From NCBI RefSeq assembly GCF_988243305.1, contig NZ_OZ547136.1: a stretch of DNA of 64,000 nt; one strand, 5' to 3'. This document shows positions 22,136 to 63,105 of the stretch, in pieces. The number at the start of each line of letters is the position of its first letter. Positions within the stretch are counted from its first letter, which is position 1. The notes under the pieces are model-generated. The model was not told where the DNA came from. It worked only from the letters and a program-made list of their open reading frames with translations, and did no database searches. Both the position numbers and the translations under genes were made by a program.

Positions 22136-23288
<1,153 letters not shown>

Positions 23289-43596: not shown

Positions 43597-44928
43597 TTAA
43601 TCAATTTGTCCTTCCAGCACCTCAAGCATTCCGCCCCGGATATCCGATTTCAGCTTATCCATATTGATAACCCGGTAAGCATTCACAATCACATCCAGTT
43701 TGTCGGGCTGATGTTTCAGACTGTACGGTGCATTAACGGCAATCTGCACACTGCCATCCTTATTTTCCACGATATACATCAGATTTTTGTGCCGTTTGTC
43801 CCACAGCACCGCTTTTGGCTTTGCCAGCATTGCCGGTAAGCGCCCGAAGTCCTCTGGCATCAGGGCGATGCCGTCATTCTGATGTTTCACACTGTCTGCA
43901 TGGAGCACATTTTTACCGCTCATCGCCAGCAGGCGGGCCGGTGGCGTTCCCGTCCGGCTTTCCACTGCCTGCGCAATGCTTTCAGTCATAAAGCCCAGCG
44001 TGCGGATATCGTTACCACCTCGCCGGGTCTGCATGATGTTTTTTGCCCAGATGCGGAACGCCAGCTGCCGCTCCGGGCTGTTGTTCATCTCCTGAACCAC
44101 CATTTCCCGTAACGCCGGGCTTTTCACCTCGATCAGTTTGCGGATCAGCGCCTGGTCTGTGCCGAACGCTGCCGAGCCGGGGTTATATGACCAGCCCACA
44201 TCCGGTGTCATGGTTCTGGTGCCATCTGAATATGTGGTCACCGGCATTTCTCTGACTTCTCCGGTCTGTTTATCCACGCCAGCCTCAACATTGCGGGTGG
44301 AGAGATGATCCTCACCGGATGAAACGGATAACCCCATTGCATCCAGACGAGCCTGAGACAATGGCCGCACACGGCAGCGGCAGTTCCAGCCATTAGGTGG
44401 GTAGTGTGTTTTCCAGAACGGATCGTCATAGCGGAATACCAGACCGTTAAGGGCGGAATGCGACGGGCGGGTACGGCTGTCCATGACCGCCACATACTGC
44501 CAGAACGGATGCGTGTCCGTGTTGTTCATCATCTGCGTGTAACGCCCGGCATTGTAAGCCACACGGGTGTTCACGTTGTAAATCAGCGCCAGACGACGGG
44601 GACTGCCCAGTTGCACTTCTTCCGCGTTACCGTCGCTGTCCACCACAATCTGCTTTCCCCACCATCCCAGCTTTTGCAGGCGTGGCGTCAGCGTGCGGAT
44701 AAATGCTTTCTGTGAAATTCCCTCATCAATGGCCCGCTGCACTTCGGCCTGTAACGTGGTCACCACATCCAGGCGTGCCGCTTTTGCTGCCGTGAATGAG
44801 CGGGCATGAACATCCGCGGCTGTTTCGAACCAGTTCCAGCTGATATGCGCCCCTTTGACACGGAAGTATGCTACCGCCTCTTTTGAGGGAAGCGTGGCGG
44901 CATAACCTAAATCAATCCCCTGTGTCAT
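43597..44928 (-). CDS. head morphogenesis protein (Mu F-like)
   Basis: 443-aa ORF containing NGWNCRCR motif typical of Mu F/SPP1 gp7 family. Confidence 0.7.
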   Translation of the reverse strand: MTQGIDLGYAATLPSKEAVAYFRVKGAHISWNWFETAADVHARSFTAAKAARLDVVTTLQAEVQRAIDEGISQKAFIRTLTPRLQKLGWWGKQIVVDSDGNAEEVQLGSPRRLALIYNVNTRVAYNAGRYTQMMNNTDTHPFWQYVAVMDSRTRPSHSALNGLVFRYDDPFWKTHYPPNGWNCRCRVRPLSQARLDAMGLSVSSGEDHLSTRNVEAGVDKQTGEVREMPVTTYSDGTRTMTPDVGWSYNPGSAAFGTDQALIRKLIEVKSPALREMVVQEMNNSPERQLAFRIWAKNIMQTRRGGNDIRTLGFMTESIAQAVESRTGTPPARLLAMSGKNVLHADSVKHQNDGIALMPEDFGRLPAMLAKPKAVLWDKRHKNLMYIVENKDGSVQIAVNAPYSLKHQPDKLDVIVNAYRVINMDKLKSDIRGGMLEVLEGQID

Positions 44929-58142: not shown

Positions 58143-60233
58143 TCAGGCCAGCGGATCACTTTCTTTTAATTTCGCTTCGAGCAACTGCAATCCCCGCTGG
58201 AAATTACGCTCGTATTCTTCATCAGGTTCATCGTCAGCGACCGGTTGCTGAACGATCACCGTATTACCCACAGGGCGGTATATATTTTCCAGCCACGGCT
58301 CCTGTGGCTTGTGCTCCAGCACGTTGACAATCTCATCCTCGGCATCACGGATTTTTTCCTCTGCGCGTTTACGCATGCCTTTAAGGCGCTGCTGCTGTTT
58401 GTGGTATTCCGCGCTGACCGGGAAGGCTTCGCGTTTATTGCCGTCCCATACCGCCTCGCAAATCACGCTGCCATCCAGGCGACGTACGGTAATTCGTTCG
58501 GCATCATGAATGTCATAGCTGATAAGCACCTTACGACCATGCTCGTCACGCAGCTCGGGCGCGTAGTAAATATTATTCAGCCAGCGTATTTCACAGCGTC
58601 TTACAGGGCGCTCCACCATCGGCCGGAACATATCCCGCAGTTCAACATCGGACAGCCATTCAATTTCCGTGTCCTCTTCCGCCAGGCGTTTTTTTCTGAA
58701 CTCCGCCGGGCTGTAATGTTTACCGTTCGGCTTCATGGGTAATTCATCGTGCGGCCGGTTGTTGTACCACTCAACACCATCACGAATGGCATCAATCAGT
58801 TCAGCCCAGGACGGTGAATCACGCATCGCTGACTGCTGCCGGGCGTTCAGCCGTTTGCCCTGTTGCAGGGCAGTAAATGCCGAGCGTAAATCGCGGTTGG
58901 TTTTGCGTAACGTCTCGCGATCTGCACCTTTCCCGAAATAGGTGCGGTATTTACGGGCTATGCGCATCGGTAATGTGCGGTTAAGCCGTTCGATAATGCC
59001 TCGTCCCTGCGGATTACCGGCAATCCCGGTCGGGTGATTAATCCCCAGTCGCGGCAGTATCCCCACAACCTCCTTATCCAGGATGTCGGCGGTTTCCCCG
59101 GAGCCGTTATCCGAGTAATACAGAAACGGTTTGCCGTGATGGCGAATGCCGTGCTGTATGGCACCGGCTACGGCGAAAACATTTTCAGCCAGGTCAAGGC
59201 TCCAGCCCACCACAAAGCGCGTGCCACCGTCGATAACAAAGGTCACTTCCGGTGCAAATGGCCGACCGTGAACCGGGTGTGCGCATTTCAGCTTCATGCC
59301 GTGACCGTCACCAATCCAGACATAATTCACCGGCATTTTTGACCAGTCGCGGCGCGTGAATCCCTCAAGCTGGCGGTATTCACTGCCGGTCACCCGGCCT
59401 TTTTGTTTCACCACTTCCGGCAGTTTCTTCATTGCGCGGCGAATGGTGTCATAAGACGGCATGATATCGAGCATATAAGGCTCATCAGCGTGCCGGTGCT
59501 GCCATTCAGCGACAAAATCCTCGTAAGCCTCGGTCATTGGTCGGCCGTTTGACTGGCGATACTGCGCCAGAAATTCGGGCAGCCAGTTAATATCTTCGGC
59601 TTTTATTTCCTGGCGCTTACCCGGTGCCAGTAAAAGCAGGCGTTCAGCGGCGTTCTGCGCCTTGTTAAAGGCCGCAATCCAGCGTTTCAGCGTGATTTCA
59701 CTTAACGCGCGGCTGTTTCCCTTTTTGGCGTTCGCCGTCTCAACCATTGCCACAATGCGCTCGTCCAGCTGCGAACGTGCCAGGTTGTCAACGATAAACC
59801 GGATAGCCTTCGCACAGCTGAAACCAGGTTGTTGCGCGACTTTCAGAACTTCGCTGACGATCGCGATTCGTGCATCAGCCACCTGGCGCTGGTTTTCAGT
59901 CAGGGCATTAAGGCGTTCGACCATCAGTTGTGGTGATCCGCGATATGCCTCCACCGCATCAACCACGGCAGGCGAGCGTCTGGCCTTTGTCACCACTGGA
60001 GCCGGTGATTCATCGACTTTTTGAGTCATCAGTTGCAGGGCGTAGCGTTCACGTAATGCCTGCTGCGTCACTTCAGGTAAACAGTCGATGCTGTATTCAG
60101 TTGCTTTAGAGCCTGAGCGACGACGGGAACAACAGCTTTTCCCTTGTACGTAACGTTGTAATGCCTGGCGAATACCTTTTGTTGTAGCAGGCATTCCGGG
60201 CGCACCAATCAGTTCTTTTGCAATGACATACAT
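58143..60233 (-). CDS. A: Mu-type DDE transposase A
   Basis: 696-aa ORF directly downstream of ner; N-terminal DNA-binding domain and central catalytic region of Mu A size. Confidence 0.85.
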   Translation of the reverse strand: MYVIAKELIGAPGMPATTKGIRQALQRYVQGKSCCSRRRSGSKATEYSIDCLPEVTQQALRERYALQLMTQKVDESPAPVVTKARRSPAVVDAVEAYRGSPQLMVERLNALTENQRQVADARIAIVSEVLKVAQQPGFSCAKAIRFIVDNLARSQLDERIVAMVETANAKKGNSRALSEITLKRWIAAFNKAQNAAERLLLLAPGKRQEIKAEDINWLPEFLAQYRQSNGRPMTEAYEDFVAEWQHRHADEPYMLDIMPSYDTIRRAMKKLPEVVKQKGRVTGSEYRQLEGFTRRDWSKMPVNYVWIGDGHGMKLKCAHPVHGRPFAPEVTFVIDGGTRFVVGWSLDLAENVFAVAGAIQHGIRHHGKPFLYYSDNGSGETADILDKEVVGILPRLGINHPTGIAGNPQGRGIIERLNRTLPMRIARKYRTYFGKGADRETLRKTNRDLRSAFTALQQGKRLNARQQSAMRDSPSWAELIDAIRDGVEWYNNRPHDELPMKPNGKHYSPAEFRKKRLAEEDTEIEWLSDVELRDMFRPMVERPVRRCEIRWLNNIYYAPELRDEHGRKVLISYDIHDAERITVRRLDGSVICEAVWDGNKREAFPVSAEYHKQQQRLKGMRKRAEEKIRDAEDEIVNVLEHKPQEPWLENIYRPVGNTVIVQQPVADDEPDEEYERNFQRGLQLLEAKLKESDPLA

Positions 60234-60234
60234 A

Positions 60235-60483
60235 TCATGACGCCTTTCTCATATAGCTCTTAACCTGGTATCGACTGGGCCAGATTTCTTCAGGCGATAC
60301 CCCAAGAGCATCAGCAATTATTTGCTGATACGGTCGGCAAGGAGTACGTAATACGCTTTTCAGCGAATCCCTGCTGTAACCAGCCTTTAAAGATAAAGAG
60401 CGCAGTGATAAGCCAGCCATGTGTAAGCGCGCCTTGATGATTTCAGGCGGCCAATCGTGATCTGAAACTTCTCTTCTACTCAT
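60235..60483 (-). CDS. ner: Ner-like DNA-binding regulator
   Basis: 82-aa ORF with ...QIIADALGVSPEEIWPSRY resembling Mu Ner/Nlp family. Confidence 0.8.
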   Translation of the reverse strand: MSRREVSDHDWPPEIIKARLHMAGLSLRSLSLKAGYSRDSLKSVLRTPCRPYQQIIADALGVSPEEIWPSRYQVKSYMRKAS

Positions 60484-60650
60484 ACTTCCTCTATTCTAAA
60501 AAGTTACCCGCGCGGATATTCGTGCGGATATCTGTACGGGTAAATAATAGAACAAACAAAAGAACCAAATCAAGGTATTTTGTTCTTTTTATTCTTTGCG
60601 GTGTTTTTGTTATTAATATCAATAAGATAAATAAAAAGGAACCTGAGAGC
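60484..60650. promoter_or_regulatory. c-ner divergent promoter/operator region
   Basis: 167-bp intergenic region between divergent c and ner; contains IR TTACCCG...CGGGTAA (60504..60543) around direct repeats GCGGATATT/GCGGATATC. Confidence 0.5.
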
Positions 60651-61235
60651 ATGAACATGAAAAACAGTTCTTTTCTCGACGAAGGAAAAGAACCAGTGAT
60701 CGAACGGATTTTTCGTCTTGCAGAGCGTTACAAATCGAGAAGTGAGGCGGCTAGAGCATGGGGAATAAACGTTCAGACATTGCAGAACTACTACAAAAGG
60801 AGAAACAATCAGCCGCCACCACAACCAAGAAAGCACCATCTCCAGAACATTGCAGAAAGAGAACATGTATCTATGGAGTGGCTGGTCAATGGTTATGGTG
60901 ATGAGCCAAGCATGAAAAAAGAACCAATTGAACAAACAAAAAGAACAAAAAAACAAAGAATTGATGATAGTGATTCCATCATCATGAGGGCGTGGGACTC
61001 GCTAACTTCATCTGAACAAGAGATTTTGTCCAACTTATTGATCAGAAAAGGGGCCGAACTACTAACCGTTTTGCTTGATACAGATATTCAAAAACTGCAC
61101 TCATTGAGCGGAGTCAAAAGAGCACTAGCATTGAGTCTACAAGAGTTACCCGATGATACTGTAAGAGAGATTTATGAAGAATGTGAAGCTAAGGTTAATC
61201 ATTTAAATGTAACCCAGAAAAAGGCTGGTGCGTAA
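60651..61235 (+). CDS. c: prophage repressor c (Mu c-like)
   Basis: Start at internal MNMKNSSFLDEGKEPVIERI; HTH-like EAARAWGINVQTLQNYYKR; divergent from ner; ORF-track start 60522 would leave no room for operators. Confidence 0.7.
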   Translation: MNMKNSSFLDEGKEPVIERIFRLAERYKSRSEAARAWGINVQTLQNYYKRRNNQPPPQPRKHHLQNIAEREHVSMEWLVNGYGDEPSMKKEPIEQTKRTKKQRIDDSDSIIMRAWDSLTSSEQEILSNLLIRKGAELLTVLLDTDIQKLHSLSGVKRALALSLQELPDDTVREIYEECEAKVNHLNVTQKKAGA

Positions 61236-61321
61236 GGGAGTGGTGCAATTTTTGTGCTGTAGTACACTCCTTTAAAGACAATCTGGAGAAAAACGTTTTA
61301 AGCCTTTTTAAGCGTCAATCC

Positions 61322-63105
<1,784 letters not shown>

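Follow-up and report, generated by a model that had tools for sequence, protein, structure and literature searches.

A 40-bp element at positions 60504 to 60543 of the window (the whole stretch of 64,000 nucleotides of contig NZ_OZ547136.1 that was analyzed) is probably the operator at which the Ner protein of a Mu-like prophage shuts off the early (transposase) promoter. The proposal, which rests on comparison of sequences, draws on the statistics of a nested palindrome with a 12-bp period, on its conservation across related phages, and on the way in which it follows the ner gene. A second set of repeats, centered on the -35 hexamer of the same promoter, changes with the immunity repressor gene c and probably contains the operators of that repressor.

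RESULTS

Prophage and gene order

The window holds a Mu-like transposable prophage of ~39 kb, from about 22.4 to 61.496 kb, with its control region at the left end; the genes there are arranged as c, reading toward the phage end, a 167-bp control region, and then ner and A, leading inward. The annotated end that this element has in LC727881 corresponds to 61496, which was taken as the phage end. Each prophage end carries three repeats of GTATCAAA, in inverted relative orientation (22440-22504 and 61325-61479), which gives the prophage its length of ~39 kb; seven copies of the repeat were observed in the window versus 1.8 expected, and those at the ends are probably transposase-binding sites. 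The prophage interrupts dcyD, as the flanking open reading frame on this side (ORF; 61484-62296) covers only positions 1-235 of the D-cysteine desulfhydrase model, which has 328. The same Mu-like element occurs in 232 of 5,426 complete E. coli genomes, inserted at many sites; O157:H7 and further Shiga-toxin strains account for many of the carriers, and at least two records place the element within Stx phages. In the literature searched, Sp18 of O157 Sakai, which is not necessarily this same element, is described simply as an intact Mu-like prophage.

The transposase gene A (58143-60233, minus strand) encodes 696 amino acids with Pfam matches to Mu-transpos_C and to a Mu DNA-binding domain, the latter being an N-terminal domain of the Mu type (PF02316; E = 6.9e-6). 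Directly upstream, at the head of the early operon, lies ner (60235-60483, minus strand), annotated as the same ORF by PGAP and encoding an 82-residue helix-turn-helix (HTH) protein, WP_001310454.1. This protein matches Pfam HTH_35 (PF13693; E = 2.5e-19), the PHROG 769 transcriptional repressor family (3e-26), Mu Ner in PDB (1NER/1NEQ; 9e-9) and EnrR (7F9H; 1.6e-8), and it is 39% identical to D108 Ner (E = 2e-14). The ner leader (60485-60503, minus strand) comprises a Shine-Dalgarno sequence, GAGGAAG (60485-60491), and a conserved 13-nt block that reads CTTTTTAGAATAG on the minus strand (60491-60503). The leader block CTTTTTAGRATAG, compared between the window and loci such as L051, L066, and L068, does not vary among relatives, even where Ner identity is as low as 68%. 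It also adjoins another palindrome (TTGATAACTAAgTTTAGTTATCAA) next to a Ner of greater divergence.

The start of c and the limits of the control region

The earlier note described a 167-bp divergent region, and this region does span 60484-60650, between the ner ATG (complement of 60481-60483) and an ATG at 60651. Its limits depend on where c begins. The c ORF listed from 60522 exists, as that note reported, in the form of a mechanical ORF (60522..61235) with a GTG start, the GTG lying in the middle of the palindrome. Our analysis supports a predicted translation start at ATG 60651, or possibly at 60657, and not at GTG 60522, in agreement with the earlier suggestion that c starts at 60651. PGAP places a CDS at the matching position (60651-61235, plus strand), encoding a c-type repressor of 194 amino acids (WP_001056416.1) that aligns with the PHROG 3037 transcriptional repressor family (2e-59) from residue 1 onward, and in the closest c allele (L005/L015), which is 90% identical at the nucleotide level, a stop codon interrupts the frame 24 nt before the ATG and the gap measures 166 bp, compared with 167 bp here. 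A likely Shine-Dalgarno sequence of c, AAGGAA, was read directly at 60636-60641 (plus strand), and AAAGGAAC precedes the c ATG in most relatives. The distance from the c start to the edge of the element is 103-107 nt in relatives and 107 nt in the window, and the conserved KEPVIERI motif of c lies 150-154 nt from the element edge in every locus. The 43-residue extension that the GTG start would add has no match in Pfam and would be translated through both the proposed Ner site and the early promoter. ATG 60657, which is also conserved and has GAGAG 7 nt upstream, is the alternative start.

Anatomy of the 40-bp element

On the plus strand, the element reads TTACCCG / CG / CGGATATTCG / TG / CGGATATCTG / TA / CGGGTAA. 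Direct reading located every repeat that had been listed earlier for 60504..60543 exactly where it had been placed: TTACCCG at 60504-60510, GCGGATATT at 60512-60520, GCGGATATC at 60524-60532, and CGGGTAA at 60537-60543. A repeat finder returned a 12-bp direct repeat, CGCGCGGATATT / CGTGCGGATATC (60509-60520 / 60521-60532; 83%), and an inverted repeat, longer than the one noted earlier, whose 19-nt arms (60504-60522 / 60525-60543) are 79% complementary with 2 nt between them. The layout is that of a half-unit, two free bases, a 10-bp unit, two free bases, a second 10-bp unit, two free bases, and a second half-unit, with a period of 12 bp; put differently, there are four units spaced by 12 bp, in which G-ATAW-C cores are flanked by CCG/CGG and between which three 2-bp positions vary freely. 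As a palindrome, the element scores 15 of 20 complementary pairs, a score that was reached at 4 of about 64,000 positions in the window and in 8 of 5,000 dinucleotide-preserving shuffles of the 167-bp region.

The inner unit CGGATATTCG (60513-60522) has the core GATATT and corresponds to the family columns T26 A27. C29 C30, which are invariant or nearly so. Its neighbor CGGATATCTG (60525-60534) has the core GATATC and corresponds to G12 A13 T14 A15. C17 C18, all invariant in the 13 closer elements, T14 being lost once two more distant ones were added. The earlier description of TTACCCG...CGGGTAA as flanking a pair of direct repeats is correct as to the repeats themselves; what has to be revised is their relationship, since together they form one single nested object whose inner units are inverted copies in relatives. 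Most relatives read GGATAACCG / CGGTTATCC at the inner units, while the E. coli lineage carries ATAT in both AT blocks, and it is because ATAT is self-complementary that the units look direct in the window.

Conservation of the element across relatives

Relatives were taken from annotated phages (the Mu-like element inside Stx phages, Pseudomonas phage VW-6B, and Yersinia phage Tongde), from E. coli genomes, from IMG/VR by means of the Ner protein and the conserved leader, and from metagenomes, where a scan anchored on the ner leader yielded seven loci with one new variant. Viral contigs were also scanned with the pattern TAACTTTTTAGGATAG; about a third of the matches were unrelated chance matches and were discarded. 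About 16 distinct versions of the element were obtained from related phages, all in the same position and all aligning without gaps. In ner sense, the order common to all relatives is the c start codon (on the other strand), A-rich repeats, a -35 hexamer TTGAyw, 17-18 bp, a -10 hexamer resembling TATnnT, the 40-bp element at a distance of 0-1 nt, the invariant leader block, a ribosome-binding site, and the ner ATG.

Thirteen columns are invariant in the 16 versions (T2, C5, G12, A13, A15, C17, C18, T26, A27, C29, T38, A39, and A40), and variation is greatest at columns 8-11, 20-21, and 32-33. Self-similarity of the aligned elements amounts to 0.61 at a shift of 12 and 0.70 at a shift of 24, against a background of 0.1-0.3 at all other shifts. 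Dyad symmetry is equally marked, with 83.6% of symmetric positions paired, compared with 23-48% when the partners were slid by 1-3 columns. Seven pairs are altered on both sides, including a clean A-T to T-A swap at columns 16/25. Among loci with one identical Ner, the polymorphic columns are 9, 20, 21, 30, 32, and 33, five of the six falling in the three 2-bp centers (8-9, 20-21, and 32-33), and the position, symmetry, and period of the element persist even in phages with Ner identities as low as 68-76%. Judged by this alignment, the sequence of the element is itself constrained, beyond pairing. One natural variant, on metagenome contig QZMH01000043.1, carries C30T, at a base that is otherwise invariant, together with G33A; the two changes restore complementarity with columns 11 and 8 and raise dyad symmetry from 15/20 to 17/20.

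We attach next to no probability to the view that the repeats arose by chance within a short stretch of intergenic DNA. It would be in keeping with a count of promoter-like sites that is no higher than in shuffled sequence; the shuffling result for the palindrome (8 of 5,000), together with the conserved position, symmetry, and period, rules it out.

Folding of the element as RNA

An RNA hairpin is the only serious rival to a Ner operator. The palindrome would then act mainly as RNA, forming a stem-loop at the 5' end of the early (ner) transcript, or of a c transcript that begins to the left of the element, and stabilizing the mRNA, and, with the CUUUUU that follows, it might serve as a leader attenuator. 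Both strands do fold better than shuffles (-14.4 kcal/mol, z = -3.2, in ner sense; -22.4 kcal/mol, z = -5.3, in c sense), pairing is kept through the two-sided changes at seven pairs, and, on the ner strand, every relative has a T-run, CTTTTT, after the element. A symmetric protein site, however, predicts equal maintenance of pairing, so that covariation cannot decide between a function in RNA and one in DNA. Several other features speak against the hairpin: specific bases are invariant beyond complementarity, direct periodicity at 12 and 24 bp is meaningless for a hairpin, a terminator scan does not flag the element, and in relatives of the L003 type, the T-run lies 10 nt beyond the stable stem. 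Furthermore, the predicted start of the early transcript lies about 6-8 nt inside the element, which means that the conserved outer arm (T1 T2.. C5 C6) would be absent from ner RNA. A scan of 60100-61600 against Rfam 15 at E <= 1 returned only a trpB motif, with 26.7 bits versus a gathering score of 59 (E = 0.4), and thus did not assign the element to any known RNA family. We consider a primarily RNA-based function improbable.

The predicted early promoter and other candidate ligands

The predicted early promoter, Pe (60544-60573, minus strand), consists of a -35 hexamer TTGATT (60573-60568), an 18-bp spacer, and a -10 hexamer TATTAT (60549-60544) that directly abuts the 40-bp element, so that the element would cover about -1 to +35 of the early transcript. 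A consensus promoter scan of the region found two sites versus 3.0 expected, which is not above shuffles; all relatives nevertheless retain the same hexamers, spaced by 17-18 bp and placed so that the promoter-like site stops 0-1 nt short of the element. For c, the consensus scan of the gap found no site on the plus strand, and two candidates picked manually, TATTCT (60492-60497) and TAAGAT (60623-60628), lack a credible -35. A comparison by eye showed that AAATCAAGGTATT at 60565-60577, which overlaps the -35 hexamer, agrees with the IHF consensus WATCAANNNNTTR in 12 of 13 positions; it is conserved in relatives of the TTGATT type and not in those of the TTGACA type. A search of the 64-kb window for further Ner sites found only one isolated CGGATATCCG, a perfect copy of the idealized inner unit at 43637-43646, near the 3' end of an ORF on the minus strand (43597-44928); this copy is probably due to chance.

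The genes A and ner are adjacent, which means that co-occurrence with the element cannot separate transposase from Ner. The element could be bound by the N-terminal domain of the transposase, as an enhancer or IAS-like site comparable to O1-O2 in Mu, or by a host factor. The transposase does carry a DNA-binding domain of the Mu type, the Mu enhancer lies in the equivalent control region, and, with regard to a host factor, half-sites such as TTATCCGCA in relatives match a DnaA box at eight of nine positions by eye. Against this, the element is unlike the end repeats GTATCAAA, and the abutment on the Pe -10 hexamer, together with the parallel to the Ner sites of Mu and D108, fits Ner better, and no finding points specifically to transposase or a host factor; we therefore regard binding by either of them as an unlikely main function.

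Separation of probable Ner sites from probable c sites

Exchange of c alleles between related prophages provided a means of assigning the two sets of repeats. Ner WP_001310454.1, together with an element that is identical or nearly so, is found alongside at least three alleles of c: WP_001056416 (in the window), WP_052078241, and the 176-residue WP_000077537/8. Loci L023 and L024 have identical Ner proteins and identical elements and differ in their c genes. That the element stays constant when c is swapped makes it a candidate operator for Ner and not for the c repressor. On the available sequences, the element stays with ner and not with c, at a distance of only 20 bp from ner that would let plain linkage explain the association; the difference between Ner types in ATAT versus ATAA/TTAT comes from one lineage.

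The repeats that surround the -35 hexamer behave differently. They form a near-palindrome of 46 bp (60551-60596, without strand; 20-nt arms, 80% complementary by the repeat finder) that is centered on the Pe -35 hexamer and has AAAGAAC/GTTCTTT in its arms, and 6 of the 20 AAAGAAC/GTTCTTT sites in 64 kb fall within 60559-60946. Among relatives, AAGAAC, AATACC, and AACACC types were seen, and these sort with the recognition helix of c: TLQNYY goes with AAGAAC/GTTCTT, TL(N/K)SYF goes with AATACC/GGTATT, and TLKNYY goes with a mixture. The types of Ner with its element and of c with its repeats were found in all four combinations. Between the window and the L001 type, identity is unbroken from ner through the element to the -10 hexamer, breaks beyond it except for a short island at the -35, and resumes only at the phage end, which places the junction between two exchangeable cassettes, c with its repeats and the ner-A module, at the Pe -10 hexamer (60544-60549). 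A c operator should change with the repressor allele, and this holds for the repeats at 60551-60596 and not for the element at 60504-60543; the A-rich AAAGAAC/GTTCTTT repeats are thus probably the c operators.

These comparisons bear directly on the possibility that the 40-bp element is instead the operator of the c (immunity) repressor, which would block Pe just downstream of its -10 hexamer. The position of the element would permit such repression, and the HTH region of c (SRSxAARAWGINxxTL) is fairly conserved across the family, as is the element. Across the change of the c helix from TLQNYY to TLNSYF, however, the element is the same or is altered only at its free 2-bp centers, in three comparisons (the window versus L001/L006/L008, L023 versus L024, and L003 versus L027), and it is the -35 repeats (AAGAAC versus AATACC) that do change. 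We consider a c operator at this position very unlikely. The repeats had been put forward earlier as candidates for repressor/Ner operators; the assignment to operators and to Ner is supported by the way in which the element follows ner, and the part concerning the c repressor is not, given the constancy of the element when c differs.

Related repeats were also noted within c. A perfect 9-bp inverted repeat, GTTCTTTTC-9-GAAAAGAAC, lies at 60667-60693, inside codons 6-15, and most relatives have similar AAAGAAC...GTTCTTT palindromes near the beginning of c, within ~15 codons of its start; among them is L023, which is of the AATACC type on the promoter side. Such a palindrome may serve for autoregulation, form a structure in the RNA, or reflect a constraint on the peptide. 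Two more copies of AAAGAAC lie at 60917-60960, in the Lys-rich linker region of c, where gaacaaacaaaaagaac nearly repeats 60550-60566.

DISCUSSION

Our results suggest that the control region of this prophage is divided between two regulators, with a probable Ner operator on one side of the Pe -10 hexamer and probable c operators on the other. Ner turns down early transcription in Mu and D108. Here, Ner molecules would bind the units spaced by 12 bp, probably as closely packed pairs on each AT core in the manner of EnrR, and several of them together would cover the start region of Pe, from about -1 to +40, blocking initiation or promoter escape. Binding would thereby turn down the early operon as a whole, including ner itself and the transposase genes. 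Should the c promoter read across this region, as its counterpart does in Mu, Ner would block that promoter too. The c repressor, for its part, would act on separate sites, the AAAGAAC/GTTCTTT repeats that flank the -35 hexamer at 60551-60596.

More tentatively, the four-unit array may support a cooperative assembly of Ner from the -10 hexamer to about +40 that silences both Pe and a face-to-face c promoter, in a system whose Ner and c cassettes reassort freely; we see this fuller model as a possibility with the balance of probability against it. Its second part is suggested by the junction, as two separate sets of sites that meet exactly at the Pe -10 hexamer could allow a cassette of A, ner, and the Ner operator and a cassette of the c operators and c to reassort freely. 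If this were true, free swapping of cassettes would give rise to combinatorial immunity types across Escherichia, Yersinia, and Pseudomonas phages with related loci. At the level of the individual prophage, telling Ner sites apart from c sites yields a concrete map of the lysis/lysogeny switch, and the overlong mechanical c ORF is corrected. An element of this kind is an expected control element for a Mu-like phage and will not surprise a specialist; no paper describing the operator of this phage group was found in the literature searched for Ner operators.

By its setting, the element resembles a Ner operator in several respects: an adjacent HTH_35 gene heads the transposase operon, the dyad and repeat structure exceeds chance, and the element follows Ner, subject to the caveat of linkage. 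Sequence similarity to the Mu and D108 operators is absent, and such similarity is not really a defining feature; no motif is shared between the element and either operator, and the operators of Mu and D108 also differ from each other.

The Ner operator of D108 has been described as a "61-base-pair operator" (Benevides et al. 1994, as relayed in PMC10434027). In the D108 sequence, we find a perfect inverted repeat with 11-bp arms, CCGTGAGCTAC-8-GTAGCTCACGG, located after TTGATT-17-TACATT and about 25 bp before ner. The two systems are alike in that the operator, proposed in our case, lies between the -10 of the early promoter (here a predicted one) and the ner start codon and has dyad symmetry with a spacer of free sequence. 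They differ in that D108 has two 11-bp arms within 30 bp and binding that was shown biochemically, whereas the window has four units spaced by 12 bp within 40 bp, with GATAWC cores and binding that we infer.

Mu shares the gene order (left end, c, control region, ner, A) and, if the early start is where we predict it, a site just downstream of the Pe start and upstream of ner; the Mu Ner site is unlike the element described here in sequence and size. The Mu sequence contains CTAAGT-6-ACTTAG at 1035-1052 of AF083977, after the annotated Pe (991-1028) and before ner (1099), and the GenBank record, in which Ner is a negative regulator of early transcription, assigns the two promoters that it annotates in the c-ner interval (991-1028 and 1063-1101) to the region or site of Ner binding. 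A further difference concerns the repressor: Mu c shares its DNA-binding domain with the N terminus of the transposase, whereas the c protein in the window belongs to PHROG 3037, and BLASTP related it neither to Mu c (E = 0.19) nor to the N terminus of its own transposase (59784-60233; E = 0.61). The Mu arrangement of a domain shared by repressor and transposase therefore does not apply here.

EnrR, itself a protein of the Ner family, offers a structural precedent. In its crystal structure (PDB 7F9H/7F9I), two monomers are packed on a 6-bp palindromic AT core, CTATAG, with G/C at +/-3 (PMC9023278), and this core resembles the GATATC and GATAAC cores that lie 12 bp apart here. EnrR is, however, a global binder of AT tracts that counteracts H-NS, a xenogeneic nucleoid-associated protein and not a phage switch protein, and since its base-contacting residues Arg47 and Arg55 are not aligned with arginines in the window Ner, the binding geometry is to be taken as an analogy only.

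The lambdoid Cro/CI switch is comparable in having two divergent regulators around one short control region and a small second repressor that lowers early transcription. In lambda, both proteins share the same operators, whereas the evidence here points to separate sets of Ner and c sites that reassort independently. As far as can be judged by comparing the sequences, the proposed Ner operator of this prophage is thus known in position and logic and is new, relative to Mu and D108, in its sequence and in the number of its units.
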